From: a virus
Reading direction: 5' to 3' (one strand)
Virus record (IMG/VR): IMGVR_UViG_3300031414_000050
Span: 1-40,883 of that record
DNA length: 40,883 nt
A program made the position numbers and the translations under genes. The notes under the pieces are model-generated. The model did no database searches and was not told where the DNA came from. It worked only from the letters and a program-made list of their open reading frames with translations. Below are positions 8,048 through 32,988 of the stretch, in pieces (within the stretch, counting starts at the first letter, position 1; the number at the start of each line of letters is the position of its first letter).

Positions 8048-8271
8048 ACCGCGAGCACCCGCCCTGCGGCACATGCGCCAAATACATCGCCAGCCACTGC
8101 GAGGAGTTCGACAGGGCGGCAGCCGCAGACGATCAGCCGTGCGTGCTGTTCCTGGCGCGCGGATCGTGGACGCACAAGAAGCAGCAACGCAACGTGACCA
8201 TTTCGCGCGCGAGCGCAGCAACCACCAAAACGAGGGACGCATCACATGATGACATTGCTACAAGGCCGTAA
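8044..8271 (+). CDS. Hypothetical Cys-containing protein (75 aa)
   Basis: It contains CGTC...HC...C and is coupled to the upstream ORF. Confidence 0.55.
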   Translation: MNREHPPCGTCAKYIASHCEEFDRAAAADDQPCVLFLARGSWTHKKQQRNVTISRASAATTKTRDASHDDIATRP

Positions 8272-9067
8272 CCGTCGCTGGAGCGGCAACGATCGCCACT
8301 TCGGCCCGATTACGTGGAGCATCAGCCGCGAAGGAAGCCAGCCCATCGGCATCGTGTTGGACTCTGGCGACGATGAGGACACTTGCCACCTGCGGATTTA
8401 CCTTCGCTCACGCACCTTGCTGGTCGAGCTGCCGCAGCTGATCGAAAAATATCGCCGCTGGGTCGATACGTCCCGCTACGCATGGAGCAAACCCGGTGGC
8501 GGATATTGGGAGGTGCACAGCCGTGAGTTCGGCTTCAGGTATGACGACGGCTTCCTGCAGGTCTTCCTCGGGCCGCAGACTCACGACAGCGTCACCACGA
8601 AGAGCTGGTGCAGGCATCTGCCCTGGACGCAATGGCGCCATGTGCGCTTTGCCTTATTTGACCTAGGCGGCCAGCAGGCCTATGTCGAATACGACCGCGA
8701 TCGCAAGAAATTCGAGGAGCGCTGGGCCGCCCAGGAAGCAGTGCCGAAAGCTCGATTCGAAATTGCCGACTATGACGGTCAAATCGCGCAGGTGCAAGCG
8801 CACATCGAGGAGCGCGAATACCGCTTCGGCACAGGCTGGTTCAAGTGGCTTTCGCTGTTCCGCCGCGCGCGTGTCTATCGCTCGCTCGACATCAAATTCG
8901 AGAAGGAAGTCGGCCCTGAGAAGGGCTCGTGGAAAGGTGGAATGTGCGGCCACTCGATCGAGATGTTGCCTGGCGAGCTCCACGAGGCCGCATTCCGTCG
9001 CTACTGCGAAAAAGAGCAGCGCGCCAAATACGGCAAGTATCGCATCCAGTTCCTACGCGCGCTGTAA
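8246..9067 (+). CDS. Hypothetical Trp/Arg-rich protein (273 aa), nin-region cargo of unknown function
   Basis: It is a long clean ORF, and I recognise no family motif in it. Confidence 0.75.
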   Translation: MMTLLQGRNRRWSGNDRHFGPITWSISREGSQPIGIVLDSGDDEDTCHLRIYLRSRTLLVELPQLIEKYRRWVDTSRYAWSKPGGGYWEVHSREFGFRYDDGFLQVFLGPQTHDSVTTKSWCRHLPWTQWRHVRFALFDLGGQQAYVEYDRDRKKFEERWAAQEAVPKARFEIADYDGQIAQVQAHIEEREYRFGTGWFKWLSLFRRARVYRSLDIKFEKEVGPEKGSWKGGMCGHSIEMLPGELHEAAFRRYCEKEQRAKYGKYRIQFLRAL

Positions 9068-9119
9068 CCGCTACCCCGCCCGGCCAGCCCGGGCGACTAC
9101 AAAAACAAGGATACCGGAC

Positions 9120-9698
9120 ATGCTCCGATCACCACTGAACCGCTCGGGCAGCCTGAGCCCGAAACGAACCCGCAAGTGCGCCGTCAAGGGCTGCGCCAAT
9201 CGCTTCCAACCCCGGAACATGGGGCACAAGGTATGCGGGCCGGAATGCGCGGCCGTGCATGCTGCGAAGGAGCGGCAGCGCCTGGACGCGAAGCAGACCC
9301 GCGAACGTAAGGCAGCGCTCAAGACGCGCAGCGAGCACCTGAAGGACGCGCAAGCCGCATTCAACGCCTTTATCCGAGAGCGCGACGCCGCCCTGCCCTG
9401 CATCTCGTGCGGCCGGCACCACACCGGTGCCTACGACGCCGGCCACTATCGCTCGGTCGGCGCCCAGCCCGCGCTGCGCTTCCATGAGGACAACGTGCAC
9501 AAGCAGTGCGTCCCCTGCAACCAGCATAAGAGCGGCAACGCAGTCGAATACCGTCTGGGACTGATCGCCCGCATCGGCGCCGAGCGTGTCGCGTTCCTCG
9601 AACAGGAGCATCCGCCGGCGAAGTTCACGATCGAGCAGGCCAAGGAAATCCGCGACACCTACCGCGCCAAGCTGCGCGCACTGAAGGAGGCAGCGTAA
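9120..9698 (+). CDS. ninG: NinG/Rap-like recombination endonuclease
   Basis: The pattern is KCAVKGC...CGPEC, then CISCGR...DAGHYRSVG...EDNVHKQCVPCN.HKSGN. Only the distal part of ORF 8682-9698 is used. The RBS is AAGGA. Confidence 0.88.
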   Translation: MLRSPLNRSGSLSPKRTRKCAVKGCANRFQPRNMGHKVCGPECAAVHAAKERQRLDAKQTRERKAALKTRSEHLKDAQAAFNAFIRERDAALPCISCGRHHTGAYDAGHYRSVGAQPALRFHEDNVHKQCVPCNQHKSGNAVEYRLGLIARIGAERVAFLEQEHPPAKFTIEQAKEIRDTYRAKLRALKEAA

Positions 9699-10402
9699 TG
9701 CGTCACCATCCCGGAGTGATCGAACCACGTTCAGCATACCAGCGCGGCCGCATCCTGTCCGCCATCGCCGAGAAGCCACTGACCGCGCAGGAACTGGCCG
9801 ACCGACTGCACCTCACCCGCGACGGCATCAACATCCACCTGAAGGCGCTGAAGGAGGCGACGCCGCGCGCCGTGTACGTGGCCGGATGGGTCTACAACCC
9901 GAAAGGCGGCCGGCCGGCGCCACAGTACAGCCCTGGCGACAAGCCCGACGCTCCGTACGTCGCCAGCCGCGCGCCAACTCGCCACCTGCAGATCGACAAC
10001 CAGAAGGCGAAGATCATGCGCCTCTTGGAGTCAAAGAAGATGACGATCCTGCAGCTCGCCGCCGAAATGGACCTGTCGCACCAGTGGACCCGACACCTCA
10101 TTTCCGATCTGCGCCAGGACAAGCACGTGCACATCGGCGGCTGGCAGCGGCAGACGGCCGGCATCGCCCCGTTGTACGCGATCGGCGACAAGCGCGACGC
10201 CAAGAAGCCCGTCATCACCGCCGCCGAAGCCTACAAGCGCCGGAAGGCCCGACTGAAGAACGATCCTGACGCCAAGGAAAGCCACCAGGCGGCCCAGAAG
10301 CGCCGCCAGTTCAGGAAACACATCAAGCGCCTGACTTCGACACCGCAGACCTGGTTCTCGGCCCTCGTTCCACCCACTACCACTGAAAGGAGCCGCGCAT
10401 GA
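9698..10402 (+). CDS. Protein with two tandem winged-helix (ArsR/MarR-like) modules, candidate late-gene or nin-region regulator
   Basis: Module 1 reads ILSAIAEKPLTAQELADRLHLTRDGINIHLKAL...VYVAGW. Module 2 reads IMRLLESKKMTILQLAAEMDLSHQWTRHLISDL...VHIGGW. Confidence 0.72.
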   Translation: MRHHPGVIEPRSAYQRGRILSAIAEKPLTAQELADRLHLTRDGINIHLKALKEATPRAVYVAGWVYNPKGGRPAPQYSPGDKPDAPYVASRAPTRHLQIDNQKAKIMRLLESKKMTILQLAAEMDLSHQWTRHLISDLRQDKHVHIGGWQRQTAGIAPLYAIGDKRDAKKPVITAAEAYKRRKARLKNDPDAKESHQAAQKRRQFRKHIKRLTSTPQTWFSALVPPTTTERSRA

Positions 10403-10506
10403 TCACCGCCCTCGCCCTCTGGCTGGCCACCTCGCCCGGCATCGCGTGCCTGGCCGGCCGCTGCATCCGCTTCGGCATGACCGAGCAGCAGGAGACCAAC
10501 GCATGA
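10399..10506 (+). CDS. Hypothetical hydrophobic micro-protein (35 aa)
   Basis: I translated it by hand as MITALALWLATSPGIACLAGRCIRFGMTEQQETNA. ATGA overlaps link it to both flanking genes. Confidence 0.35.
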   Translation: MITALALWLATSPGIACLAGRCIRFGMTEQQETNA

Positions 10507-10838
10507 CCCAGCCCATGACTGAAGCCCCACAAGCCGACTCCCCTTTCAACACCGTCATGAAGACCTGGGCGCGGTGGATGACCTTGGCCGACCACCAGCA
10601 TTCCGAGGGCAACGCCAACCCACAGGACGTGAAGGAATTCATGGCCTGCGGTGAGGCCGTCGACGTCATGGTCAGCGATTTGACCATCCACCAACGGTGG
10701 GCCGTTCGGAAAGCCTTCGGGCTGGCGACCGCCTGGATCTACCCTGAGCGATCGTTCGCAGACACGCTTGTTGCTGCTGAGGCGATTTTGTCGGTCAAGA
10801 TGCTGAAAAATGTTGCTACTCGGCGATATTTCAATTAG
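10503..10838 (+). CDS. Putative late antiterminator (small Q-like protein, 111 aa)
   Basis: It is the last early gene, directly upstream of a promoter and tandem terminators. Its size and W..W...DV.....L pattern resemble small Q-family proteins. AGGAG lies 8 nt before the ATG. Function is assigned mainly from position. Confidence 0.45.
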   Translation: MTQPMTEAPQADSPFNTVMKTWARWMTLADHQHSEGNANPQDVKEFMACGEAVDVMVSDLTIHQRWAVRKAFGLATAWIYPERSFADTLVAAEAILSVKMLKNVATRRYFN

Positions 10839-10863
10839 GATATACGTGCTAGATGCCAATATT
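10835..10863 (+). promoter_or_regulatory. Putative late promoter (PR'-like): TTAGGA-17 nt-AATATT
   Basis: It is the only AT-rich stretch between the Q-like gene and the terminators. Confidence 0.4.
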
Positions 10864-10883
10864 GCATCTTGAATAGATACCTA

Positions 10884-10920
10884 AGCCCCGCAGTCAGCGA
10901 TGACGCGGGGCTTTTTGCTT
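10884..10920 (+). terminator. Intrinsic terminator 1 in the late leader
   Basis: AGCCCCGC(A)GTCA-GCGA-TGACGCGGGGCT forms a 12-bp stem with one bulge and a GNRA loop, followed by TTTTTGCTTT. Confidence 0.8.
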
Positions 10921-10960
10921 TCCGTACCGTGTCTCTATCGCCTCGGCACCCGTCGAGGCT

Positions 10961-10988
10961 TGCCCGCCTCGCGCGGGCTTTTTTATTT
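10961..10988 (+). terminator. Intrinsic terminator 2 in the late leader
   Basis: GCCCGC-CTCGC-GCGGGC is followed by TTTTTTATTT and lies 12 nt upstream of the first late-gene start. Confidence 0.65.
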
Positions 10989-10999
10989 GAAGGTGAGTT

Positions 11000-11383
11000 A
11001 TGGCCAAGTGGGTGCACCCGGACGTTTTGGATGGCGGCCTGAACGCGATCAAGAACGGCGCGACCAAGGAAATGGTCATCAAAAACTATGTCGCCGGCGA
11101 TAGCTACGCAACCGTGACCGGGAACGCGCTCGCGATCGTCACGGTGACAAGCGCCGATTTCACCATTACCAGTTCGGGCAGCAACCGCACGATTACCGCA
11201 GCTGCCAAGAGTGCCACTGCAACCGCGCCCGCCGCCGGTACCGGCGAAAACCATCACGTCGCATTCACCGATGGCAGTGCAAAAGTGCTGTGGGTGACCG
11301 ACGAAACCAACGAGCTGCCAAACAACGTCGGCGACACCCTGAACATACCAGCAGTGCCGTACACCGCTAACCAGCCAACCTAA
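11000..11383 (+). CDS. Hypothetical protein (127 aa), first late gene
   Basis: It has RBS GAAGGTGAG and a Thr/Ala-rich beta-type sequence. I recognise no catalytic motif. Confidence 0.7.
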   Translation: MAKWVHPDVLDGGLNAIKNGATKEMVIKNYVAGDSYATVTGNALAIVTVTSADFTITSSGSNRTITAAAKSATATAPAAGTGENHHVAFTDGSAKVLWVTDETNELPNNVGDTLNIPAVPYTANQPT

Positions 11384-11389
11384 CCGAAC

Positions 11390-12640
11390 ATGACCGCACC
11401 TGCCGATATCTATGCCGTCGCCAGCGGTCAGCCGATCTATGGAGGGCGTACCGCGCCGAGCGCCGGCAATACGTTCGACTCGCTGAGCTATACAGATCTG
11501 AGCGGCGCGCCGACATCGGCACAAAACGGGCTTGTGTTCGTCGTCGAGTTGCACGGGTCAAGCGGCTCGAACTACAAGCAAAACGGGCGGCAGTATCGAG
11601 CCGCAGTCAGCGGCTCGATGGCACTGCCTGGCACGAGCACGATCGACGTCAACAATCTCGATTTCGACTCGCACAACACGTTTGGTTTCAGCACGGTCTA
11701 TGCCTATGACACGTCCGTCATCCCTAGCGGCGCGATGGTCAAGATTCGCCCGATTGACAAGTGGTACAACGATGCGAACCAGTGGCGCGAGTCGGCGCAC
11801 TGCGGCTTCAAGCTGGCCGATGGCAAAGTCCACCTGATCAGTGAGCGCCGCTACGACGCCATGATGAGCTGGGCTGATGCGAACCTGACGCAGTACGACC
11901 ACAACAAGCGCGTGCTGTGCGGCGGCTCGATGGGCGCGTGGGGCACCGCGTCCTACGGCGTGCGCCGCTACGCGATGTTCGCCGCCCTGTATCCCGACCG
12001 TCCGCGCTGGAAGCACGACACCGGTACGACGACCTTTGCTGTTTCGGAGTACGCAAACACGTCGGCCGGCGGCTCGGGCTTCGTGAGCACGCCAATTGCC
12101 AGTTCACCGCTGCTGGTGGCCGAGGATGGAGGCACGTCGTATGCCGCTTACCTGGACATGATCGCGTATGTGTCGAACACCGCGAACAAGGTCCGATGGA
12201 TTGGCTGGTGCCTGGGGCGCAATGACGGCTATGCGAGCTTCCAGGACTCGATCGACATGGTCGACGCCCTGCGCACTACCAAGCGCGGCTTCGCCTTCGC
12301 CTGGAACAACGGCGACCATGGCACCGGCTCGATCATGAACCAGATCACGAACAGCTACCCGTACGGCACGTTCCGCCGCGATCAGGGCTATCCCTTGTTC
12401 ACCGAACACTCGCTAGACCAAGATCCGAAAGTCGATCTGGTCGGCGGTATCAACCTGGGCTTGTCGTTCCGCAATGTGGTCGAAACAGCTTCAGGCTGGT
12501 CCTGCCAGGTCACGAACATCTTGAATGCCTGCACGGTCAAGGTCGAGCCGATCAGCGACGTGTTCAAGGCCGCTGTCGCGAAGCAGCTGGTCACGATCCC
12601 AGCAGCCGGTACGTGGGTTTCCGTATCCTTCACCGCATAA
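11390..12640 (+). CDS. Alpha/beta-hydrolase-like serine esterase (416 aa)
   Basis: The HG oxyanion-type motif VVELHGSSGS and the nucleophile elbow GGSMGAWG (Ser codon 11927-11929) are present. Candidate Asp and His residues are in GRNDGY and NNGDHG. Confidence 0.7.
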   Translation: MTAPADIYAVASGQPIYGGRTAPSAGNTFDSLSYTDLSGAPTSAQNGLVFVVELHGSSGSNYKQNGRQYRAAVSGSMALPGTSTIDVNNLDFDSHNTFGFSTVYAYDTSVIPSGAMVKIRPIDKWYNDANQWRESAHCGFKLADGKVHLISERRYDAMMSWADANLTQYDHNKRVLCGGSMGAWGTASYGVRRYAMFAALYPDRPRWKHDTGTTTFAVSEYANTSAGGSGFVSTPIASSPLLVAEDGGTSYAAYLDMIAYVSNTANKVRWIGWCLGRNDGYASFQDSIDMVDALRTTKRGFAFAWNNGDHGTGSIMNQITNSYPYGTFRRDQGYPLFTEHSLDQDPKVDLVGGINLGLSFRNVVETASGWSCQVTNILNACTVKVEPISDVFKAAVAKQLVTIPAAGTWVSVSFTA

Positions 12641-12648
12641 GGTAAAAC

Positions 12649-14433
12649 ATGGCAACAAAAACCGTTGGCACTGGCGGCGATTTCGCGAACATGGCCGCGT
12701 ATCAGGCGTACTTCAACGCCCTAGATATGACCGGCCCGGAGTATTGCAACCTAATGCCGGGCGAGACGGTGGACACCGTCAACGTCACGCTCACCCCGAA
12801 AAGCGGGTCGAGTTCGGTAAACCGGCTGTATATTCGTCCAGCCGTCGGCAGCTCCTGGCGCGAAAATGCCAATGTGCGCAACAATGCGGTGCGGTACAAC
12901 CCTGCCAACGGGGCGGCTCTGCGCTCCACGGTCGGTGGCGCGTATGGCATTGAGATTAACTGTCCCGTCACGATCGAGGGCATACAGTACAAGGGCGGCT
13001 CGTCCAGCACATTCCCAATTAAGCTGAACGGGAACAACAGCGAGTTCCGCTATAACATCGTCGAAGCGAACACGTCCGTTCTGCAGGTTGTCAACCTTGT
13101 CGGTGTCGGCATCATCGCGGAGAAAAACTTCGTCATCCAGAAGGGCACCGCGGGCGGATTGGTTGTGGCCGGCAGCGGCGCTACGGTGCTTGGCAACACG
13201 ATCGTCGCCTTGGGCACCGGTACCCGTGGCTTGATGCTGGATTACGCACTGGCACCAGTCGCAAAGAACAACATCGTAGTCAACTTCACGACCGACTACG
13301 ACCAGACCGCCGGCACTGGCTCGTCGAACAATGCCACGAGCAACGCCAGCTTCAGCAACGCCAGCTACGGCACAACCGGCGGTCAGGTCAGCGTGTTGGC
13401 GGCGTCTTTCGTCAGCCTCGTATCCGGCAGCGAAGATTTGCGCCTCACGGCGTCGGCGACGAAGCTGATCAACATGGGCACCACGACCGGCACCGCACAG
13501 GATGCGTCCGGACTGGCGCAGCCCTCGGGCTCTGCGTACGATATCGGCGCCTGGGAATATCAAGCTGCTGCCGACACGACGGCACCGATTCTGTCCGCCC
13601 CGACGGCAACCGCAACTGGCGCAACGACCGCAACCGGCACCGTGGCGACTGACGAAGGCGGCGGGACACTGTATTTCCTGGCGACTGCCAACGCGACCGA
13701 AACGGCTGCTACGATCAAGGCCAGCGGCGGCACGCAAGCGGTCAGCGCAACCGGCACCCGCACCGTCGCTTTTACCGGCCTGACTGCTGGGGCGACTTAC
13801 TACGCTCACTATGTCCAGGTCGACGCAGCGAACAACACGTCGGCGGTCGCAAATAGCGCAAGCTTCACCACGCAAGCCGTCGACAGCGTTGCCCCGACCT
13901 GGCCGAACGGTGCGGCCATCACGCCGGGCGCGACGACATCGAGCAGCCTTTCGTTTAGCTACCCGGCGGCGTCCGATAACGTTGGCGTGGCGAAGTACCA
14001 GACCAGCAAGAATTCGGGCGCGAACTGGGATGACAACGGCACCGGGTTGAGCGGGCAGTACGTCGGATTGACAGCAGCCACCACGTATCCAATTTGGGTC
14101 CGTGCGGTAGATGCGCAAAGCAACGCCTCCGTCCCGCTGCAGCTGTCGATGACGACCAGCGCGGCAAGTACTGGCAGCTTCAAGTCGTCGCCACTTGAGA
14201 ATAACACCGGCACGCTGTACGCCGCCGGCACTGCCGTTGCCGTGACTTGGTATCAGGGTGGCCGGATTGGTGCGGCGCCGACCAGCGTGACGCACACCTC
14301 GGGCACCGTGGCTGCAGACGGAACTATCACGTTGACCGGCTTGCCGATCGGTGCCGGTTACGGCATGTACGCGGTCCAGGGTACGAATGCAGCAACCGAC
14401 AAACCATATTACGAAGCGGGGACGGTGGCCTAA
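12649..14433 (+). CDS. Right-handed beta-helix (pectate-lyase-like) protein with two FN3 domains and a C-terminal beta domain (594 aa)
   Basis: The N-terminal VGTGGDFANMAAY start is followed by repetitive G-N-x-I/V coils and DIGAWEY at the helix end. The two FN3-like units start at about TTAPILSAP and DSVAPTWP. Confidence 0.75.
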   Translation: MATKTVGTGGDFANMAAYQAYFNALDMTGPEYCNLMPGETVDTVNVTLTPKSGSSSVNRLYIRPAVGSSWRENANVRNNAVRYNPANGAALRSTVGGAYGIEINCPVTIEGIQYKGGSSSTFPIKLNGNNSEFRYNIVEANTSVLQVVNLVGVGIIAEKNFVIQKGTAGGLVVAGSGATVLGNTIVALGTGTRGLMLDYALAPVAKNNIVVNFTTDYDQTAGTGSSNNATSNASFSNASYGTTGGQVSVLAASFVSLVSGSEDLRLTASATKLINMGTTTGTAQDASGLAQPSGSAYDIGAWEYQAAADTTAPILSAPTATATGATTATGTVATDEGGGTLYFLATANATETAATIKASGGTQAVSATGTRTVAFTGLTAGATYYAHYVQVDAANNTSAVANSASFTTQAVDSVAPTWPNGAAITPGATTSSSLSFSYPAASDNVGVAKYQTSKNSGANWDDNGTGLSGQYVGLTAATTYPIWVRAVDAQSNASVPLQLSMTTSAASTGSFKSSPLENNTGTLYAAGTAVAVTWYQGGRIGAAPTSVTHTSGTVAADGTITLTGLPIGAGYGMYAVQGTNAATDKPYYEAGTVA

Positions 14434-15015
14434 ATGCTGCGCTGTTTAACGACCAAAGGAACCAGCGGGCGGGGTATTATGGGCACGCCGTACGTGGGCC
14501 TGCTCGCATCCGAGCTGCCGAGCGGTTTTGCGCTGCCCGGTATGCTGGCAAACGACGTGCTGGCCGGAGATCCGGCAGGCTGTCGTTATCGCCAGGAGAT
14601 CACGTCTTGGCCGAGCGCTGGCGCGCTGTCCGTTGGTGAGGATTGCGCGTTTTCGTTTACCGGAGCGCCGGACGGTGTCTACACCGGCACGACGAAGGTC
14701 TACAAGAACGGTGTTCCTGACGTCGGGTCGTACAGCTTCACGATCGGCGCCGCCAGTGCGCAGGTCAACTTAATGGTTGCCTCCTGCTCGCAGGCGAATA
14801 CGAGCAGCACCGCCGCGGTGACGGTTACGGCCGGCGCGAAGACAGTCAACCTGGCGGTCGCCGCGTGCACGCAGACAGCGCAGTCGGGAACTGTGGCCGT
14901 GACCGTTACGGCGGCACCTCCTGACCAGCTCGGCCCGGCCAGCTCTGCCCCGCAGATCAACCTGCTGAGCAGTATTGGCCCCGGAATTATCAACCTGACC
15001 ACTAGCCTTCTATGA
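14434..15015 (+). CDS. Hypothetical Ig-like/repeat protein (193 aa)
   Basis: It contains FSFTGAPDGVYTGTTKVYKNG and an internal AVTVTA...VAVTVTA repeat. The alternative start is at 14479. Confidence 0.6.
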   Translation: MLRCLTTKGTSGRGIMGTPYVGLLASELPSGFALPGMLANDVLAGDPAGCRYRQEITSWPSAGALSVGEDCAFSFTGAPDGVYTGTTKVYKNGVPDVGSYSFTIGAASAQVNLMVASCSQANTSSTAAVTVTAGAKTVNLAVAACTQTAQSGTVAVTVTAAPPDQLGPASSAPQINLLSSIGPGIINLTTSLL

Positions 15016-15317
15016 CAGCCAACGTTGGAGAGTATGGCCACGCCGTGAACGTGTTCGTGGCCTACGACATGAGCTTGCAGAACTCGCTGCAGGCGACGAT
15101 CGAACGCCCGGACAAGTCGCAGATCGTCGGCGCCGCAGTCCTGGGCACCGCGCCGCTCGTCACCGATGGCGGCACGTTCCCCGCAAACCAGTACTGCACC
15201 TACACGGTGAAGGACGGCGATCTGACGGTGCCCGGCGAGTACATCGTCCGCATCACCTACAAGGACGGCACGAAGCGTCTGATCTCCGATCCGACCAGCT
15301 TTACCGTCAGCCCGTAA
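15012..15317 (+). CDS. Hypothetical Ig-like beta-sandwich protein (101 aa)
   Basis: It is coupled to the upstream gene by ATGA. The pattern is YTVKDGDLTVPGEYIVRITYKDG...FTVSP. Confidence 0.65.
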   Translation: MTANVGEYGHAVNVFVAYDMSLQNSLQATIERPDKSQIVGAAVLGTAPLVTDGGTFPANQYCTYTVKDGDLTVPGEYIVRITYKDGTKRLISDPTSFTVSP

Positions 15318-15389
15318 TAGTCTCTGCCCGCCAAGGCACGGCGAGCGTGAGGCGCACACGTAAAAACGCACCCAACACACAAGGCAACC

Positions 15390-15893
15390 ATGAGCGAGAA
15401 GAAACCGAAGCCACCGCGCAAGGGTGCGGCACCGGCTGAGGCCAAGCCGCCCGGTCGCCCCAGTAGCTTTACACAAGAGATTGCGGACGAAATCTGCCAG
15501 CGCCTGGCGAAGGGCGAACCGCTTGCCCAGATCTGCCGTGACGATCGCATGCCTGCTTCGCGCACGGTCAGCGATTGGAAGGCTGCGCACGAGACCTTTT
15601 CCGCCGACTTCGCGCGCGCACGCGAGGAAGGCTTCGACCAGATCGCGACCGACTGCCTGGCCATTGCCGACGAGACCACGTTCGACACGATCACCGGCGA
15701 GAACGGCGACCGCGCGAACACCGAATGGATCAGCCGATCGAAGCTCCGCATCGAGACGCGCCTGAAGCTGCTGGCCAAGTGGGACCCGAAGCGCTACGGC
15801 GACAAGCTGGACTTGAACCACGGCGGCCAGGGTGACAACCCGGTCAACATGAACTGGAACATCAACTTCGTGAAACCGAGCGATGAACGTTGA
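15390..15893 (+). CDS. terS: Terminase small subunit
   Basis: The N-terminal HTH motif is GRPSSFTQEIADEICQRLAKGEPLAQICRDDRMP, and the gene sits immediately upstream of TerL. Confidence 0.85.
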   Translation: MSEKKPKPPRKGAAPAEAKPPGRPSSFTQEIADEICQRLAKGEPLAQICRDDRMPASRTVSDWKAAHETFSADFARAREEGFDQIATDCLAIADETTFDTITGENGDRANTEWISRSKLRIETRLKLLAKWDPKRYGDKLDLNHGGQGDNPVNMNWNINFVKPSDER

Positions 15894-21892: not shown

Positions 21893-22537
21893 ATGTCGAC
21901 CGCCTGGACCCTCGCCGCTGCCGACGTCTGCACCGACGCACTCCAGCACCTGGGCGTCATTGGCGCCGGCGAGGTGCCCAGCGGTGACGACATGCAGGTA
22001 GCCCTGCGCGCGCTCGACGCGGTGCTCAAGGAGCTGCCGCTGGCGGGCTATGCCTGGCCGGCGCTTTCGGGCATAGCCGCGGTGCCCTGGGCCGCTGGCC
22101 AGGCCACGACGCTGCCAGCCGACTATTTCGGTTCCCCTGTCGTTTCGCGCTCGGTCGACGGCAAGAAGGTGCCGCTGAACCAGATCCCGCACGCCCGTTG
22201 GGTGCAGATGATCGACCGCGGCGCCACCGGCACGCCGACGTACTTCTACATCGGCCCCGACCATGTACTGAACCTGTGGCCGGTGCCGGATAGCGATCCA
22301 GCCGTGACGCTGCAGTACCAGCGCATCGTGAGCGATGCCGACAGCACCGTGGCGCCGGATGTTCCGCAGTTCTGGCTGAACGCGCTCGGCTATGGCGTCG
22401 CCAATGAGCTGCTGCTGAAGTTCGACACCCCGGACGCCAGGGCGCAGGTCATCGCCAGCCGCTGGCAGGCCAAACGCGCGGCCGCGCTCGAGCATTCGAT
22501 CGAGTCGGCACCGATCAGCTTCGAAGTGAGAGATTGA
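21893..22537 (+). CDS. Head-to-tail adaptor (P22 gp4-like)
   Basis: The N-terminal pattern is D.ALQHLGV...DMQVALRALDAVLKE. It lies directly upstream of the gp10-like gene. Confidence 0.6.
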   Translation: MSTAWTLAAADVCTDALQHLGVIGAGEVPSGDDMQVALRALDAVLKELPLAGYAWPALSGIAAVPWAAGQATTLPADYFGSPVVSRSVDGKKVPLNQIPHARWVQMIDRGATGTPTYFYIGPDHVLNLWPVPDSDPAVTLQYQRIVSDADSTVAPDVPQFWLNALGYGVANELLLKFDTPDARAQVIASRWQAKRAAALEHSIESAPISFEVRD

Positions 22538-23970
22538 TGCGCACGAAACTACCCTTCGTCGGCCCGTCCTACCAGGCGCGCTCGCTGAACGCCGACGCCC
22601 AGCGCACGCTGAACTGCTACGTCGAGCTGGACAATGCCAGCCCGCGCGCGCCGGCCGCGCTGTACGGCACGCCGGGCACGGTGCGCAAGCTGACCTTCCC
22701 GACCGGGCCGGTGCGCGGCGGCATCCCGGCAGGCGCGTACACCTGGTGGGTGGCCGGCAACGTCGTCTACCGCGTCGACAGCGCTTACCAGCACCTGGCC
22801 CTGGGCCAGATCAGCACCTACGGCGGCGCGGTGGACATGGCGTCGAACGGCGGCCAGATCCTGCTGGTGGACGGCGAGGAAGGCTGGATCATCGACGTGG
22901 CGAACTCCAAGCTGGCGGTCATCACCGACGACGCCTTCCCCCGCGGCGTGACGCGCGCAGCGTACCAGGACGGCTGGTTCCTGGTCACCGGGGACGGTAC
23001 CGGAAAGTTCTACATGAACGAGGTACCGAACGACGGCAGGAAGTGGAACGGCCTGGACTTCGCTTCGGCCGAGGGCTCGCCGGACAACACCGTCGGCATC
23101 ATCAGCGACCACCGCGAACTCTGGCTGTTCGGCGAGCAGACCGCCGAGGTGTGGGCGAACACCGGCAACGCCGATTTCCCCTTCCAGCGCAGCGGCAATG
23201 TGTTCATCGAGCACGGATGCGCCGCGGCCGGTACGGTGGCGAAAGCCGACAACACCGTGTTCTGGCTGGGCGCCGACGACAAGGGCGCCGGCATCGTATG
23301 GCGCGCGGACGGTTACACGCCGCTTCGGATCTCGACGCACGCGATCGAGTCCGCAATCGGCAGCTACCCGCGCATCGACGACGCCTTTGCGTTCACCTAC
23401 CAGCAGGAAGGCCACATTTTCTATGTGCTGACCTTCCCCGCCGCCCGCGCGACCTGGTGCTACGACGCGGCTACCCAGCTCTGGCACGAGCGCGCCTGGC
23501 GCAACCCGAACACCGGCCAGTTGACCCGCTGGCGCCCGAGCTGCCACGTGTACGCGAACGGCGAGCACCTGGTCGGCGACTTCGAACTGGGCGTCGTCTG
23601 CGCGCTGGACCTGGACGCGAACACCGACGACGGCGCGCCGATCCTGCGCCTGCGCCGCACCACGACCAGCGAAGCGCTGCAGCAGCGGATGTTCTACAGC
23701 GGCCTGCAGATCGACATGGAAACTGGCGTTGGCGTCGACGACGGCCAGGGCGCCGCGCCGCTGCTGATGCTGCGCTACTCGAACGACGGCGGTCACACCT
23801 GGAGCCCGGAGCGCACGTCCACGGTCGGCGCCGCCGGCCAGTATGGTGCCCGGGCGAAGTTCAACCGGCTGGGCTCCGGCCGCAACCGCGTGTGGGAGAT
23901 CACCATGACGGATCCGGTCAAGTTCGCGGTGCTGGGCGCGGTGGTCGACGGCGAACCGGGGGCGTCATGA
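22537..23970 (+). CDS. Tail hub / packaged-DNA stabilisation protein (P22 gp10-like)
   Basis: The protein is 477 aa, against 472 aa for P22 gp10. It has a beta-propeller-like repeat texture, and its C-terminus (SNDGGHTW...NRLGSGRNRVWEI) parallels the gp10 end. The ATG at 22537 overlaps the upstream TGA. Confidence 0.7.
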   Translation: MRTKLPFVGPSYQARSLNADAQRTLNCYVELDNASPRAPAALYGTPGTVRKLTFPTGPVRGGIPAGAYTWWVAGNVVYRVDSAYQHLALGQISTYGGAVDMASNGGQILLVDGEEGWIIDVANSKLAVITDDAFPRGVTRAAYQDGWFLVTGDGTGKFYMNEVPNDGRKWNGLDFASAEGSPDNTVGIISDHRELWLFGEQTAEVWANTGNADFPFQRSGNVFIEHGCAAAGTVAKADNTVFWLGADDKGAGIVWRADGYTPLRISTHAIESAIGSYPRIDDAFAFTYQQEGHIFYVLTFPAARATWCYDAATQLWHERAWRNPNTGQLTRWRPSCHVYANGEHLVGDFELGVVCALDLDANTDDGAPILRLRRTTTSEALQQRMFYSGLQIDMETGVGVDDGQGAAPLLMLRYSNDGGHTWSPERTSTVGAAGQYGARAKFNRLGSGRNRVWEITMTDPVKFAVLGAVVDGEPGAS

Positions 23971-24494
23971 GCATCCTGACCCGCTTCCCGCCGCGAATCC
24001 GGATCGCCAACCCGGACGGCACGCCAACGCCGGAGTTCCTGCGCATGCTCGACATTCTCGTGTCGCGCGTGGGTGACGCATTCGGCGACATGGGCGCCGA
24101 CGTCTTCGCAAGCGCCGAGATTCCCGCTCCAGCGGGAATGCCGGACGTGTTCCAACAGCAGCCCGCCGAGCATCTGGCCGAAATGGTCCTGCAGCCGGCG
24201 CCCGGTGGCGGCCAGCCTGCCGATATCACGCAGCAGCCGCTGGACTATTCGGCCGGCACGGCGCTGGCCCTGACCAACTATCGCTTCTCGCTGAAGGACA
24301 CACCGGTTACGCCCGGCACCTACGGCGACGGCACCCACGTGGCGAAGTTCACGGTCGACCAGCAAGGCCGCATCACAGCAGCGGAAAACGTCGCGATCGA
24401 ATTCCCCGAATTCCCGTCCGGCGCGAACTACAGCGGCAGCCTGACCGGCAAAACCGTCGTCATCTCCAACGGCATCATTACATCGGTGACATAA
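23967..24494 (+). CDS. Tail needle/fibre-like protein (175 aa)
   Basis: It carries the common phage-fibre motif VTPGTYGDGTHVAKFTVDQQGRITAAENV and occupies the P22 gp26 position. Only the distal part of ORF 22746-24494 is used. Confidence 0.65.
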   Translation: MSILTRFPPRIRIANPDGTPTPEFLRMLDILVSRVGDAFGDMGADVFASAEIPAPAGMPDVFQQQPAEHLAEMVLQPAPGGGQPADITQQPLDYSAGTALALTNYRFSLKDTPVTPGTYGDGTHVAKFTVDQQGRITAAENVAIEFPEFPSGANYSGSLTGKTVVISNGIITSVT

Positions 24495-24824
24495 ATGCAA
24501 CGACTCCCGAAACAAATCGCCTGCGCTGAACTCGGCGCGGGCACGTCGGACCTGTACACGGCACCGACGAACACCAAGACCACCATTTCGGCCTGCTCGG
24601 TCACGAACAAGAGCGGCGCCGCGCGAACCGTGACGGTCACGATAAAGCCGCCGGGCGGTGTGGCACGCAACGTCGCGTTCGGCCTGGGCGTCGCTGCCGG
24701 CGAAACCCGTGTAGTGCACGGCGCCCTGGGCCAGACCATCGAAGCCGGCGGCGTGCTGGCGGCCTTCGGCGACGCGGCCGGTGCCCTCGATCTCGTGGCT
24801 TCCGCGTACGAGACGAATCCATGA
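24495..24824 (+). CDS. Hypothetical tail-module protein (109 aa)
   Basis: It is a clean ORF whose ATG directly follows the upstream TAA. Confidence 0.6.
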   Translation: MQRLPKQIACAELGAGTSDLYTAPTNTKTTISACSVTNKSGAARTVTVTIKPPGGVARNVAFGLGVAAGETRVVHGALGQTIEAGGVLAAFGDAAGALDLVASAYETNP

Positions 24825-25282
24825 TCGCGGTCACCTATAGCGGCATGCTGGCGCCGGCGCAGACGATGCGGCAGAAGGTGGAGCGCCTGCAGGCAGAGCT
24901 GGCCAAGCTGCCGCAATACGAGCCGCCGACGAAGCACTACTTCCATGCTGGCATGTACTGCCGCGAGGTGTGGCGTGAAGCTGGCGTGCTGGTGGTGGGC
25001 AAGGTGCACAAGAAAGAGCACTTTTACCTGATCGTCAGCGGCACCGTGGTGATCACGAGCGACGATGGTGTCGAGCGCGTTACCGGCCCGAAGCTCTTCA
25101 TGTCCAAGCCGGGCACGAAACGCGCGGTTCTGGCCGAAACCGACGCGCTGTGCATGACGTTCCACGTGTTGGACGCTACTACCGTCGAGGATGCCGAAAC
25201 GGAGCTTGTCGAACCTGACGAGCTCTCGATGTACGACGCCCTCAATAGACCCAAAATTCAACCGCAAGAGGTATTGCCATGA
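24821..25282 (+). CDS. Hypothetical cupin-like protein (153 aa)
   Basis: It has a beta-barrel texture (HKKEHFYLIVSGTVVITSDDG) and is coupled at both ends. Confidence 0.65.
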   Translation: MIAVTYSGMLAPAQTMRQKVERLQAELAKLPQYEPPTKHYFHAGMYCREVWREAGVLVVGKVHKKEHFYLIVSGTVVITSDDGVERVTGPKLFMSKPGTKRAVLAETDALCMTFHVLDATTVEDAETELVEPDELSMYDALNRPKIQPQEVLP

Positions 25283-29296: not shown

Positions 29297-29342
29297 GTGT
29301 CTCCGGGCTTCGTGCCTGTTTGTATTGTCGAGAAAGTATTGT

Positions 29343-29372
29343 AGCCCACCCTGACCCGGTGGGCTTTTTTTA
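29343..29372 (+). terminator. Intrinsic terminator between the ejection-protein genes and the tailspike gene
   Basis: AGCCCACC-7 nt-GGTGGGCT is followed by TTTTTTT. Confidence 0.75.
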
Positions 29373-29394
29373 TGCCCACCACAGAAGGCCACCT

Positions 29395-31140
29395 ATGACC
29401 GGTGTCATCGCGACCATCCCCCGAAACCAGTTTTTCGACCAGCTCGGCAAGCCGCTGGCCGGCGGCAAGCTCTACACCTACCTGGCCGGCACCACCACCC
29501 CGGTGACCACCTACCAGGACCAGGCCCTGACGATCAAGAACCAGAACCCGATTCCTCTGGATGCGCTCGGCTCCTGCTCGATCTGGCTGGACCCAGCCAA
29601 AACCTACAAGCTCGTGCTGAAGACGGCGCAGGGCACGACCCTGCCCGGCTGGCCGATCGACAACATCAGCGGCGCGGCGACGCCGGAGTCGCTGGAGCCG
29701 TCTCTGTCGTCGTTCGCCAAGCTGACGGCGCTGGCTGCGGCGGCAGGCTCGTCGCTAGTGAACTTCCTGCAGTCCGGCGCCGGCGCCACCCTGCAGAGCA
29801 TTCAGCGCAAACTGCGCGGCGACCTCAACATCATGGACTTCATCAATGATGGGGTGGATACCACCGTGGCCGACTGCACTGCAGGCATCCGCGCCGCGGT
29901 CAGCCACCTGGCTACCCGGCAGCGCGGCAACCTCTACTGCTCCGGCGGCAAGTTCCTGATCAGCGACACGATCGATTTCTCCCTCCTGGGCGACGAGCAC
30001 CGCTTCTTCGACATCGACCTGGGCGGCGCCGAGTTCATCTGGTCGGACCCGAACGCGGCCAAGCCCATGTTCTCCGGCTATAACAACAAGTCGGTGCGGA
30101 TTCACAACTTCACGCTGATCGGCAACGCGACCGACACGATTTCGAAGGCCTACGGCGTGCGCCTGGACTCGATCCAGCCGGGCGGCTCCGACCTCATGTC
30201 CTTCGACAACTTCCGGGTGCGCTTCTGCGACAAAGGCTTCTACCTGGGCAGCTTCGATGCGGACCAAAACCGGGTTTCCGACATCGAAATTGGTGGCCAG
30301 TTCGTCATCGAGAACTGCAACACCGGCATCTACACAGAGTCGACCAACGTCGATTCGCTGGTGGTCCGTAGCGGCATCGTCTCGGCGTGCACCACCGGCA
30401 TCGAGCTCAAGCGCGCCGGCTTCATCAAGCTGGACACGGTCACCGGCTACTCGTGCAAGGACTTCATCAAGGTGAACGGGCCGATCGGCCCCCTGCTGGT
30501 GGTCAACTGCCAGTCGGAGCAAGGTGACGTCGTTGGCGCGCGCTTCTTCTACCGCGTCCGCTACGACGAGGCACGCACCGGCCCGGTGACGTTCGAGAGC
30601 TGCAACATCGACAACCCGATTGTCTTCGACTACGACCCTGGGATCGGCTCGGATGCGCAGACCGTGAACATCATCGGCGGCTACTTCCGCGAAATGCAGG
30701 TGAAGTGCCCGGACACGGTGGTCAACCTGATAGGCACCGCGCAGACGGCCGGCTACGAGTTCAAGGTTTCGGGCCCGAACTGCCAGGTCAACAACATCGG
30801 CAGCCGCATCTACGGCACCGTCACCGACACGGCGAAGAGCGGCGCCGACCTGACGCAGAAGTATTCGTACATGCCAGGCGGGCGCCTCATGCAGTGGGGC
30901 AGCACCGAGCTTATGCCGGTGGCGGCCGGCGCCGTACGCGAGGAAATCGTCAACTTCCCGAAGCCGTTCACGCAGATCGAATCGATCGTTGCGACGCCGT
31001 ACAGCCCGGACGGCGCCGGCGGCGAGGTCTTCCGCTATGCCTTCGGTGGCGAGCTGGACCACATGACGCTGCGCTTCGAGAACGAAAACACCGGCGCCGG
31101 CATCAACATCGGCGCGAGCTGGCTGGCCATTGGCCGCTAA
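29395..31140 (+). CDS. Tailspike with conserved N-terminal virion-anchor domain and pectate-lyase-like beta-helix (581 aa)
   Basis: The N-terminal motif is QFFDQLGKPLAGGKLYTYLAGTTTPVTTYQD. The beta-helix coils read NFTLIGN..., IENCNTGIY.... The ATG at 29395 follows AGAAGG. Confidence 0.88.
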   Translation: MTGVIATIPRNQFFDQLGKPLAGGKLYTYLAGTTTPVTTYQDQALTIKNQNPIPLDALGSCSIWLDPAKTYKLVLKTAQGTTLPGWPIDNISGAATPESLEPSLSSFAKLTALAAAAGSSLVNFLQSGAGATLQSIQRKLRGDLNIMDFINDGVDTTVADCTAGIRAAVSHLATRQRGNLYCSGGKFLISDTIDFSLLGDEHRFFDIDLGGAEFIWSDPNAAKPMFSGYNNKSVRIHNFTLIGNATDTISKAYGVRLDSIQPGGSDLMSFDNFRVRFCDKGFYLGSFDADQNRVSDIEIGGQFVIENCNTGIYTESTNVDSLVVRSGIVSACTTGIELKRAGFIKLDTVTGYSCKDFIKVNGPIGPLLVVNCQSEQGDVVGARFFYRVRYDEARTGPVTFESCNIDNPIVFDYDPGIGSDAQTVNIIGGYFREMQVKCPDTVVNLIGTAQTAGYEFKVSGPNCQVNNIGSRIYGTVTDTAKSGADLTQKYSYMPGGRLMQWGSTELMPVAAGAVREEIVNFPKPFTQIESIVATPYSPDGAGGEVFRYAFGGELDHMTLRFENENTGAGINIGASWLAIGR

Positions 31141-31167
31141 TCCTTCCCAACCACCAGTAATAACAAC

Positions 31168-31563
31168 ATGAAAGTCCAAAACATGAGCGAACCCATTACT
31201 ACCGGCGCCGGCGGCGTCGTTGCCTGGAAGGCGCTAGGCGGCCTGGCGGGCGCTGCCGGCATCGGCGCCGGCGTCGCGTCGTACATCGTGATGACGATGA
31301 CGAAGCCGAAAGACGACAAAGAATTTCGCGTATCGCTGGCCAGCACGATCGCTGCTTCGCTGGGCGGTGGCGCGGCCGCGATCAAGTACTTCGGCATCGA
31401 GAAATGGGCCGGCGACGTGATCGGCCTGATGGGCATGGGCGGCGTAATGTTCACGTGCGGCCTGCCTGGCTGGCTGCTGGTGCGCGCCCTCTTCCATTAC
31501 ATCGAAAAGCGCAAGGACGCCGACCTGACCGAGATCATCAAGGACGTGAAGGAGATGGTCTGA
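31168..31563 (+). CDS. Holin (three predicted TM segments, charged C-terminus), possible dual start
   Basis: The N-terminus MKVQNM gives two in-frame starts, at 31168 and 31183. It sits directly upstream of the endolysin. Confidence 0.78.
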   Translation: MKVQNMSEPITTGAGGVVAWKALGGLAGAAGIGAGVASYIVMTMTKPKDDKEFRVSLASTIAASLGGGAAAIKYFGIEKWAGDVIGLMGMGGVMFTCGLPGWLLVRALFHYIEKRKDADLTEIIKDVKEMV

Positions 31564-32027
31564 TGCCGCCCTCCGCTTTCATCGGCATGCTCGCTGGCGC
31601 GGCGCAGGAGTGCATGCGCCGAACCGGGATTCCTGCCTCTATCACCCTGGCCCAGGCCGCACTGGAATCCGGCTGGGGCGCCCGCGCGCTCGGCAACAAC
31701 CTGTTCGGCATCAAGGCTGACAAGAGCTGGACCGGCCCGACCGTCAGCTTCGCTACGACCGAGCACCTGGACGGACGCAACGTGCACCTGACGGACAAGT
31801 TCCGGAAGTACGACAGCTACGTCGAGAGCATGGTCGACCACGGCCGATTCCTGCTGGCGAACCCGCGATACCGGGAATGCTTCAAGGAGACGACCGGAAT
31901 GGGCTGGGCGACCGCGCTGCAGAAGGCCGGCTACGCCACCGATCCGGAATACGCCAAGAAGCTACAGGCAACGATCCGCGTGCGCAATCTGCAGTTCTAC
32001 GACCAACTGACGCCGGGGGCGAAATGA
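31563..32027 (+). CDS. Endolysin, GH73/FlgJ-type N-acetylglucosaminidase
   Basis: It contains ITLAQAALESGWG...NNLFGIK...YATDPEYA. The start overlaps the holin stop. Confidence 0.9.
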   Translation: MPPSAFIGMLAGAAQECMRRTGIPASITLAQAALESGWGARALGNNLFGIKADKSWTGPTVSFATTEHLDGRNVHLTDKFRKYDSYVESMVDHGRFLLANPRYRECFKETTGMGWATALQKAGYATDPEYAKKLQATIRVRNLQFYDQLTPGAK

Positions 32028-32530
32028 GTGCGCTCGAGCGACTGCTGGTCGCTACCCTGGTGCTGGCCGCCATGGCCGCCGGCGGCTGGTTCGCCTTGGA
32101 GCACTACGGCGCCGAGCGCTACCAGGCCGGCCATGATGCCGCAGTCGCAGCCGGCGAACTACTGCGCCAGGCCGAGGCCGAGCGCAACCACGAAACCGAG
32201 TCGGACCTGCGCGCCCAGCTGCACGACAAAGACGCCGACGCCTTCAAAAAGGAACAGGAATATGCCGAGAACCTCGACGATGCTCAGCGCCGCGTGCGCG
32301 CTGGCACTGACCGCCTGCGCTGCCCCGCAGCCAGCCCCGTACCTGCCGGCGCCGCGCCCGGTGATCGACCCGCTGCCGGCGGACCTGCAGCTGACGGAGA
32401 AGGACCTGCAATGGTGCCCGACGTTTCTGCGGATCTTCTCAGCCTCGTCGCAGACCATCAACGACTTGTGCAGCGATACGCCCGCGTCGTCGAACGCTTC
32501 GAAGCCTGCCGTGCCGTGAACGCGAAGTGA
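32024..32530 (+). CDS. Rz: i-spanin (Rz-like)
   Basis: It has an N-terminal TM (LLVATLVLAAMAAGGWFAL) and a charged coiled-coil periplasmic domain. It is ATGA-coupled to the endolysin. Confidence 0.8.
   Translation: MSALERLLVATLVLAAMAAGGWFALEHYGAERYQAGHDAAVAAGELLRQAEAERNHETESDLRAQLHDKDADAFKKEQEYAENLDDAQRRVRAGTDRLRCPAASPVPAGAAPGDRPAAGGPAADGEGPAMVPDVSADLLSLVADHQRLVQRYARVVERFEACRAVNAK
32262..32519 (+). CDS. Rz1: o-spanin lipoprotein (Rz1-like), fully embedded in the +1 frame of Rz
   Basis: The lipobox is in MLSAACALALTAC, and the mature part is Pro-rich. AGGAA precedes the ATG at 32262. Confidence 0.75.
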   Translation: MPRTSTMLSAACALALTACAAPQPAPYLPAPRPVIDPLPADLQLTEKDLQWCPTFLRIFSASSQTINDLCSDTPASSNASKPAVP

Positions 32531-32643
32531 TGGACATCCACCTGCTCACCCCGCAGGGCGATCAGCTGGTGGTGCAGGTGGTGGACGGAGAGGTGGTTGT
32601 GCCGCCCGCCGCCGCGCCGGATCAGCCAGAACCCGGCAAGTAA
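32530..32643 (+). CDS. Candidate micro-protein (37 aa) coupled to Rz
   Basis: I translated it by hand as MDIHLLTPQGDQLVVQVVDGEVVVPPAAAPDQPEPGK. About 32 of 37 codons end in G or C, and the ATG shares one base with the Rz stop. Confidence 0.35.
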   Translation: MDIHLLTPQGDQLVVQVVDGEVVVPPAAAPDQPEPGK

Positions 32644-32978: not shown

Positions 32979-32988
32979 GCCGGCCCGG

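Follow-up and report, generated by a model that had tools for sequence, protein, structure and literature searches.

A five-gene cassette at the presumed start of the late operon of a P22-like prophage, probably encoding accessory neck fibres that carry an esterase and a beta-helix protein

The five-gene cassette

The presumed late operon of a P22-like temperate prophage (63% GC) opens with five genes that lie upstream of the terminase genes and occupy positions 11000-15317 of the IMG/VR virus record IMGVR_UViG_3300031414_000050. The whole stretch of 40,883 nucleotides (nt) that was analysed is referred to here as the window. The five open reading frames (ORFs) are all located on the + strand and are separated by intergenic gaps of 6, 8, 0 and -4 nt. 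Gene 1 (11000-11383, + strand) encodes a small protein of 127 amino acids (aa), g127; gene 2 (11390-12640, + strand) an esterase of 416 aa, EST; gene 3 (12649-14433, + strand) a beta-helix protein of 594 aa, BH; gene 4 (14434-15015, + strand) a repeat-containing protein of 193 aa, g193; and gene 5 (15012-15317, + strand) a protein of 101 aa, g101. The first four ORFs were taken to be genes and not chance ORFs because each of them has many conserved homologues. These coordinates are exactly those of an initial annotation made from the DNA alone, which had left three roles for the cassette unranked, namely a second receptor-binding and depolymerase set, head decorations, or soluble enzymes released at lysis.

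Scans of the five proteins against Pfam, PHROGs and NCBIfam returned weak fn3 and choice_anch_Q matches in BH and otherwise almost nothing. All five proteins, together with L113_279, the third cassette protein of a Massilia prophage, were used as tblastn queries against 50,697 deposited phage genomes and gave zero matches, and a blastn search of the region matched the terminase alone. Neither signal peptides nor membrane segments were found in any of the five cassette proteins. Among the proteins checked, the QFFD...GGKLYTY motif was confined to the canonical tailspike (29395-31140) and was carried by 0 of the 5 cassette proteins, as had been noted previously.

Gene 1 and its whisker-like predicted fold

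A collar-whisker apparatus is known from Felixounavirus Bas63 and Shigella phage Sf14 (PMC12609058, PMC11821841; PDB 9mt4, 9c39). In Bas63, whisker dimers are threaded like beads onto a rope formed by the N-terminus of the collar protein, and the whiskers are homologues of Fiber-1 of the Ralstonia podophage GP4 (PMC12609058). The g127 family is strongly conserved and comprises at least 381 homologues with 55-70% identity. A model of g127 obtained with AlphaFold2 (AF2), with a predicted local distance difference test (pLDDT) score of 86, found its best PDB fold matches in chains 9c39_K and 9mt4_K/N, which a PDB search with Bas63 gp5 identified as the whisker protein; the collar protein is Bas63 gp4. 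More specifically, the matches to 9c39_K and 9mt4_K had Foldseek probabilities of 0.95 and 0.89, template modelling (TM) scores of 0.48-0.59 and expect (E) values of 0.16-0.19, and are weak. In BFVD, the same model matched the N-terminal parts of fibre proteins belonging to the tail and the tail collar. Homologues of g127 occupy structural modules upstream of large fibre-like proteins, and are found among tail and internal-virion genes. Based on the model, the fold of g127 appears to be most like that of the neck whisker of Sf14 and Bas63. An N-terminal docking motif common to the proteins encoded after g127 homologues was sought and not found.

Two divergent copies of g127 were observed in a podovirus-like contig (L001, 4599-14484), each at the head of its own set of large proteins. 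The first set is made of a 925-aa protein and a 596-aa ConA-like lectin protein, the second of an esterase, a beta-helix protein and a g193-like protein, and both sets are located 3' of the lysis genes.

Gene 2, a predicted serine esterase

The family of the esterase counts at least 268 proteins from metagenomes. In 28 aligned sequences the oxyanion residue H55, the motif G178-G-S180-M-G182, D279 and H310 were invariant, and a C-terminal beta-sandwich was assigned to approximately aa 340-416. The family profile matched CE1-like esterases, cutinases and feruloyl esterases in the PDB, the matches to 5vol and 8z91 (3e-6 to 8e-6) being to the nucleophile elbow region alone. The window esterase itself had zero Pfam matches at E <= 0.1, and PF00756 and PF00326 were assigned to 10 and 8 of 28 relatives, respectively. 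Overall, the invariant residues and the profile matches identify the product of gene 2 as a predicted alpha/beta-hydrolase serine esterase with a Ser-Asp-His triad, in agreement with its first description as serine-esterase-like.

Cellular relatives of the enzyme (30-38% identity, the C-terminal beta-sandwich included) are signal-peptide-bearing proteins of Planctomycetota and Myxococcota, and the esterase family to which they belong appears to be uncharacterised. These relatives (L116-L157) are secreted proteins of 570-690 aa that possess an additional N-terminal domain of ~250 aa. In one of them, L131 (1152 aa), the N-terminal region is far longer and looks like a combination of gluconolactonase-type and SGNH-type modules.

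Gene 3, a beta-helix protein with FN3 domains

The AF2 model of BH (pLDDT 89.5) was interpreted as an N-capped right-handed beta-helix (~aa 1-305) followed by two FN3 domains (~310-505) and a C-terminal beta-sandwich (~505-594), the last of which adds to the beta-helix and two FN3 domains already recognised in the initial annotation. Read without inspection of the coordinates, the model shows an N-terminal helix cap and serial short strands over aa 60-266, with the helix beginning at residue 3. The beta-helix is closed by a choice-of-anchor-Q motif, detected above cut-off at aa 273-305 (NCBIfam NF041518, 26.5 bits). The FN3 domains matched FnIII of chitinase A1 (5e-11, profile against PDB sequences), and the first of the two is a promiscuous module common to many other proteins. 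When the beta-helix profile was searched against PDB sequences, FN3 domains alone were recovered; similarly, FN3 arrays dominated the Foldseek results for the whole model, which included zero beta-helix-specific matches and were uninformative on catalytic type. The alignment has zero invariant columns in the beta-helix. Beta-helix positions conserved at >= 70% are mostly structural, with the addition of D72, R82, Q113, Y199 and N207, and cleavage of a glycan by this domain is possible. BH has neither an N-terminal particle-binding domain nor the QFFD/GGKLYTY motif.

Genes 4 and 5, a repeat-containing protein and its neighbour

In GP4, the 93-aa Ig-like (immunoglobulin-like) protein gp77 is present in 15 copies that encircle the head-to-tail adaptor and bear the fibres (PMC11445570). 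The g193 protein was divided into three parts. Its N-domain (14434-14748, + strand, aa 1-105) is Ig/cadherin-like, has relatives in 448 representative clusters and is the hallmark of the third core gene of the cassette. Two tandem 24-aa repeats follow (14761-14913, + strand; QVNLMVASCSQANTSSTAAVTVTA / TVNLAVAACTQTAQSGTVAVTVTA), with the pattern xVNLxVAxC(S/T)QxxxSxTxAVTVTA, and are referred to here as rope repeats. The protein ends in a C-terminal tail of about 33 aa (14914-15015, + strand; PPDQLGPASSAPQINLLSSIGPGIINLTTSLL), which fills the slot where relatives bear a Gp77 or adaptor domain. The earlier reading of gene 4 as an Ig/repeat protein was thereby borne out. The ATG at 14434, which abuts the stop codon of gene 3, was favoured as the start of g193 because its homologues align from residue 1; a public call of the same gene (P0361, 178 aa) begins at Met16 (14479).

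The association of rope repeats with g127 was assessed by counting genes with two or more copies of the repeat, as detected with a rope-repeat hidden Markov model (HMM). Such genes were present in 27 of 85 g127 loci and in 0 of 73 other loci (Fisher p = 7e-9), the latter being control loci of other origin, many of them cellular, and so an imperfect match. All 27 rope-repeat genes belong to loci retrieved through g127, lie on the same strand at a distance of 0.4-3.5 kb and, where a g127 gene was called, all but one are downstream of it. Cassette loci without g127 are likewise without rope repeats. It is proposed that g127 is the "bead" that binds the rope repeats.

Small proteins made nearly entirely of rope-like repeats were also seen (L030, 13416-14111; L057, 10384-10806), encoded after a g127 homologue or after the large protein that follows it. 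The genomes in which they occur are those of 100-kb and other uncultured phages.

Lastly, g101 is translationally coupled to g193 through an ATGA overlap, and its homologues are restricted to a sister contig of the same phage lineage, IMGVR_UViG_3300031132_000027. A six-frame HMM scan of the whole window for a Gp77-like domain gave zero matches, and the window system is, as judged by its own sequence, outside the Gp77 family. The g101 protein is a candidate collar or anchor subunit.

Distribution and position of the cassette in other phages

Synteny with related phages, which the initial annotation had proposed to compare, placed the cassette at differing positions in podoviruses and siphoviruses. 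The gene order esterase, beta-helix protein, g193 N-domain protein recurs in at least 25 loci from IMG/VR or assemblies, and prophages of Massilia and Pelomonas have it as well. Among 30 esterase loci with at least 4 kb of downstream sequence, a beta-helix protein was encoded in 22 and a g193 N-domain in 19. In the window and its sister contig the cassette precedes the small terminase gene, and in L001 it closes the structural operon, 3' of the lysis genes. It lies between the portal and protease-capsid genes in L004, a lambda-like siphovirus. In L017, L113 and L165, which are HK97-like siphoviruses, it is flanked by the capsid gene on one side and by head-tail adaptor or head-closure genes on the other. 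Genes 2-4 are thus shown, on the evidence of gene order, to form a portable core in podo- and siphoviruses. The cassette can be described, within the databases searched, as common in uncultured phages of an environmental, Burkholderiales type and as unmatched in the 50,697 deposited genomes. Both the combination of genes and their position had been considered unusual. For the combination this holds among cultured phages but not in metagenomes, where it recurs widely. The position of the window cassette is one of at least four, and the Bas63 collar/whisker genes, as well as a KVP40 gene described below, also stand beside portal or terminase genes.

The small gene located 5' of the esterase gene varies with phage type, and its product is g127, a 165-aa DUF7172/phrog_13135 protein, or a member of phrog_3758, phrog_644 or phrog_437. 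These genes do not make up a single family.

The 165-aa DUF7172/phrog_13135 protein precedes the esterase in both L004 and L113 with 76% identity, and the flanking head genes of these two phages differ. Its homologues are encoded in the genomes of 52 Vibrio phages, and the phages listed among these are schizoT4 phages of the KVP40 type. In KVP40 itself (L158, 215075-215623) the gene for the homologue carries no annotation and is flanked by neck gene 15 and small terminase gene 16.

Fusions to neck proteins in relatives

The Pfam domain PF23148 (podophage GP4 fiber-tail adaptor gp77), an Ig-like collar domain of about 85-93 aa, was identified in 11 of 45 members of the g193 N-domain family. Other domains present in this family are cadherin and Big, and one member contains SU10_adaptor and Phage_connect_1. 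The Gp77 domain scored above the Pfam cut-off in L113_279 (39.9 bits), L046_969 (34.1 bits) and L009_606 (29.3 bits). An HMM built from the C-terminus of L004_304 matched the gp77 ORF of GP4 with E = 1.3e-5. With this HMM, many g193-like proteins were seen to carry the domain at their very C-terminus, and it was likewise detected in stand-alone Gp77-like proteins of 93-104 aa, which occupy the position equivalent to that of g101 in L114, L053, L062, L037 and L054.

Fusion to a head-tail adaptor was found as well. Specifically, L017_348 (12720-13766) combines in one chain a g193 N-domain, repeats and an adaptor domain; the latter has a homologue in L113_193, a match to phrog_442 'head-tail adaptor', and a search of L017_348 against PDB sequences gave no match. 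In at least nine loci, the next gene 3' of a g193-like, Gp77 or rope gene encodes a stand-alone adaptor. In L070 (4245-5087), a gp6-like head-tail adaptor was observed with an N-terminal extension of three rope repeats.

The putative working domains are also joined to Gp77. P0152 consists of a beta-helix, FN3 and two Gp77 domains, and its gene adjoins an esterase gene and is closely followed by genes for the adaptor, head closure and tail. In P0202, a beta-helix-like protein, Gp77 is the terminal domain. L046_969 (locus L046, 1113-4409) unites in a single chain a SASA/GDSL acetylesterase, three rope repeats and a C-terminal Gp77 domain, and is encoded directly after a g127 homologue. From this domain order, L046_969 is predicted to be a single-chain form of an esterase on a neck fibre. 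Furthermore, a domain of ~700-770 aa is fused to the esterase in L008 (376-3801), L009 (7493-11176) and L025 (3826-7215), and to a g193 N-domain with rope repeats and Gp77 in seven other proteins. The same domain is found stand-alone after g127, the listed loci including L077 (10446-13016). It had zero Pfam matches in L008, L009 and L025 and zero meaningful PDB matches in L008, and may be a further glycan-active module.

We tentatively put forward a wider reading, which we hold to be possible but short of probable. A portable glycan kit made of an esterase, a beta-helix/FN3 protein and an Ig-like stalk would be mounted in the necks of unrelated podo- and siphoviruses via interchangeable anchors, these being the Gp77 collar domain, fusion to a gp6-type head-tail adaptor, and rope repeats clamped by a whisker-like protein.

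Mosaicism with a sister phage

The sister contig (L006, L033, L160) shares positions 9119-15395 of the window with 95.7% nt identity, and positions 22522-24860 and 29342-33008 with 99% identity each. These shared blocks comprise the regulatory region and the cassette, the hub genes, the tailspike and the lysis genes. Between them, the sister contig encodes an unrelated small and large terminase, portal, scaffold, capsid and gp4-like module. Recombination has left sharp joints, placed at ~15395, the start codon of the small terminase gene, and at ~22522.

This comparison bears on the possibility that the cassette proteins are bound to the capsid lattice in the manner of Hoc or of head fibres, so that Ig/FN3 domains and enzymes would cover the whole head. 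Such a decoration is suggested by the several siphovirus loci in which the cassette directly follows the gene for the major capsid protein or separates the portal and capsid genes, and by the membership of some of the small upstream genes in PHROGs annotated as 'virion structural protein' (head and packaging category); the FN3 and Ig content is also reminiscent of Hoc. However, the cassette is 96-100% identical in the sister phage despite the swap of the head module, and decoration of the lattice is disfavoured because the sister phage keeps the cassette with unrelated capsid, portal and terminase. In addition, all the anchoring domains of the relatives are neck elements (Gp77 collar or head-tail adaptor), and g127 homologues occur among tail and internal-virion genes. 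Head decoration, to which the capsid-cassette-connector synteny had pointed, was consequently dropped on the mosaic comparison and the Gp77/adaptor fusions, and we regard it as very unlikely. The head decorations envisaged in the initial annotation were thus near the mark as to place, the neck being adjacent, but not as to the capsid lattice.

The same mosaic is somewhat awkward for attachment to the neck, since a tight fit to an adaptor ring would have to survive the exchange of portal, capsid and gp4-like adaptor. It would fit with fibres that are fixed to the conserved hub region, or with a loosely seated collar of mismatched symmetry such as has been described for GP4.

Proposed function of the cassette

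We propose that the five genes probably encode a neck-anchored accessory fibre system with a head made of the esterase and the beta-helix/FN3 protein. In this model, g193 would be the backbone of the fibre, with the Ig-like N-domain followed by the two rope repeats, and dimers of g127 would clamp these repeats as the Bas63 whisker and GP4 Fiber-1 clamp the rope. The g101 protein, the C-terminal tail of g193, or both, would tie the fibre to the tail adaptor region, and these are the candidate anchors in this phage. The beta-helix/FN3 protein and the alpha/beta-hydrolase esterase, which we infer to be physically attached to the particle, would be the working heads. At adsorption, the fibres would bind a surface polysaccharide, the presumed substrate (O-antigen, capsule or extracellular polysaccharide, EPS), from which the esterase would remove O-acyl groups, while the beta-helix would bind and possibly cleave the chain. 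The particle would in this way pass the glycan layer and present its canonical tailspike to the receptor. The tight coupling of the genes inside the late structural transcript, together with the lack of signal peptides and transmembrane segments, is in favour of this proposal. Of the three roles originally left unranked, a second receptor-binding and depolymerase set is the best supported, through the Gp77/adaptor and beta-helix fusions, the likeness of g127 to whiskers and the co-occurrence of rope repeats with g127.

Several results weigh against a neck-anchored fibre. The match of g127 to the whisker is weak (TM about 0.5), and zero sequence signal was obtained to Bas63 gp5 (hhalign) or to any GP4 ORF. 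Neither g193 nor g101 has a Gp77 or adaptor domain detectable with Pfam or hhalign (probability 0.3-0.5%), and a recognisable Gp77 or rope element was present in 10 of the 30 esterase loci and no more. The control loci of the co-occurrence test were, as stated above, imperfectly matched. In the alignment columns of the beta-helix, there are no invariant catalytic residues. Both the esterase and BH resemble monomeric carbohydrate-active enzymes of the secreted type, without an N-terminal particle-binding domain. Finally, a fusion of the esterase to Gp77 was sought and not found, the sole link between the two being the common ~700-aa domain.

The last two of these points also speak for an alternative in which the esterase and BH act outside the particle as free enzymes. 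Made late and released at lysis, they would deacylate or degrade capsule, EPS or O-antigen, with the effect of destroying receptors, which would keep progeny off debris, or of loosening a biofilm; g127, g193 and g101 may nevertheless stay structural. The two proteins are indeed built like secreted bacterial enzymes and have cellular relatives with signal peptides, neither carries a recognisable virion-binding N-terminus or the tailspike motif, and the cassette outlives the exchange of the head module. On the other hand, homologues of the beta-helix protein are covalently joined to the Gp77 collar domain, and the esterase is strictly syntenic with neck-anchored proteins across unrelated phage types. 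Moreover, the esterase shares its ~700-aa fusion partner with proteins made of a g193 N-domain, rope repeats and Gp77, and L046 encodes a different, SASA-type esterase in fusion with rope repeats and Gp77. Overall, we consider release of free enzymes to be the main alternative, possible but clearly less likely than the neck fibre.

Comparison with known systems

The fibre-tail adaptor, rope and Fiber-1 system of GP4 was reported by Zheng et al. 2023, as described in PMC11445570 and PMC12609058. The cassette resembles it in that relatives of its third core protein bear the gp77 Ig-like collar domain, and the window, for its part, encodes a small protein with a putative whisker fold and another whose tandem repeats may correspond to the rope; the window phage is also a podovirus with a P22-gp4/gp10-type tail hub. 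It differs from GP4 in the lack of a detectable Gp77 domain and in the location of its genes at the start of the late operon, away from the adaptor gene. HMMs of g127, the rope repeats and the g193 N-domain gave zero matches to the GP4 genome. To our knowledge, neither an alpha/beta-hydrolase nor a beta-helix enzyme is present on the fibres of GP4.

As for Bas63 and Sf14, their whisker chains are the best structural matches of the g127 model, and the collar and whisker genes of Bas63 (gp4-gp5) are located between portal and protease, the slot taken by the cassette in L004. Unlike the window phage, both are myoviruses, and they show zero sequence similarity to g127. The function of the Bas63 whisker has merely been speculated upon (contact with lipopolysaccharide), and it has no attached enzymes (PMC12609058).

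A literature search for esterases borne on the capsid or neck returned the esterase tailspikes of N4-like phages alone. These tailspikes are SGNH-fold, trimeric and tail-attached. They are alike in concept, being virion-borne carbohydrate esterases that deacylate surface polysaccharide as part of an accessory receptor-binding device attached through another protein (G7C gp63.1; Moo19, B2; PMC11654681). In contrast, the window enzyme is a predicted alpha/beta-hydrolase (CE1/esterase-D-like) with a beta-sandwich that is probably monomeric and would be attached as proposed above. An esterase of the SASA/SGNH type was encountered in L046 alone, where it is fused to rope repeats and Gp77.

The tailspike gp9 of P22 and Sf6 is likewise a right-handed beta-helix in a P22-like phage. 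BH differs from it in having no N-terminal head-binding domain, a helix of ~300 aa with a choice-of-anchor-Q cap and FN3 domains after it, and no conserved catalytic residues. Hoc of T4 offers a parallel as an Ig/FN3-rich accessory virion protein thought to mediate weak adherence to glycans, but the anchoring domains seen in relatives belong to the neck, and the cassette does not depend on the type of capsid. The window system is most likely a variation on the collar-rope-whisker theme of GP4 and Bas63 and on esterase-bearing receptor-binding complexes.

If the wider reading of a portable neck-mounted kit is true, the head-tail junction would constitute a third general site for enzymatic devices of host recognition, beside the tail tip or baseplate and the capsid. 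A concrete function would be given to the collar and whisker structures of GP4, Bas63 and Sf14, and the alpha/beta-hydrolase class would be added to the virion-borne carbohydrate esterases. Enzymes on a scaffold of the collar/whisker type would make the role of such appendages in GP4, Bas63 and Sf14, so far a matter of speculation, directly testable. Predictors of receptor-binding proteins and depolymerases focus on tail tips and baseplates, and would be escaped by enzymatic fibres mounted on the neck. The cassette also represents an untapped source of polysaccharide esterases, binders and modular anchors for phage engineering.

Operon context and other features of the window

Two terminator-like hairpins were identified before gene 1. 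The first (approximately 10885-10919, + strand; GCCCCGC...GCGGGGC followed by TTTTT) lies between the regulatory genes and the cassette, and was read by eye in the sequence, outside the hairpin-scan list, as having the form of the second. The second intrinsic-terminator-like hairpin (approximately 10962-10988, + strand) consists of six GC pairs followed by TTTTTTATTT, and lies 12 nt in front of the gene 1 ribosome-binding site and start codon (ATG). Two hairpins at this location are consistent with a late operon that is read through by antitermination. An ORF of 130 aa (10446-10838), a putative antiterminator, matched no family in Pfam and PHROGs scans.

This context is of relevance to a further alternative, according to which the cassette is a moron that serves lysogenic conversion by modifying the surface glycans of the lysogen, for superinfection exclusion or serotype conversion, with no role in the virion or at lysis. 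The phage is temperate, with an integrase gene at 33068-34180 (minus strand), and the cassette is mobile and mosaic, both of which are in favour of this alternative. Against this, a promoter-like site of its own was not seen for the cassette, which has two terminators upstream and a late-operon position, and its relatives are fused to structural proteins. Furthermore, the cassette proteins cannot reach the surface of an intact lysogen because they are devoid of signal peptides and membrane segments. We accordingly give hardly any credence to lysogenic conversion and retain the neck-anchored fibre as the preferred explanation.

Elsewhere in the window, the cassette is followed by an Sf6-type small terminase gene (15390-15893) and then by the large terminase and portal genes. 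The structural set further includes a capsid gene, a gp4-like adaptor (21893-22537), a needle-like protein and ejection proteins, and a gp10-like hub of 478 aa (22534-23970) with a gp10/Hc3-like match over its full length. The lysis cassette, made of an endolysin and an Rz-like spanin (31168-32530), is located at the opposite end from the five genes, as originally claimed.

Two overlaps between long ORFs were noted. The hub ORF (22534-23970, 478 aa) is overlapped in a different frame by an ORF of 582 aa (22746-24494), and the segment 23970-24494 represents either an unassigned gene with an uncertain start or a frameshift. NinG was assigned to 9171-9698, within an ORF of 338 aa (8682-9698) whose NinG/Rap domain is restricted to the last 175 aa. 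The Arg/Ser-rich N-terminal half of this ORF overlaps another ORF (8246-9067) and is probably untranslated.

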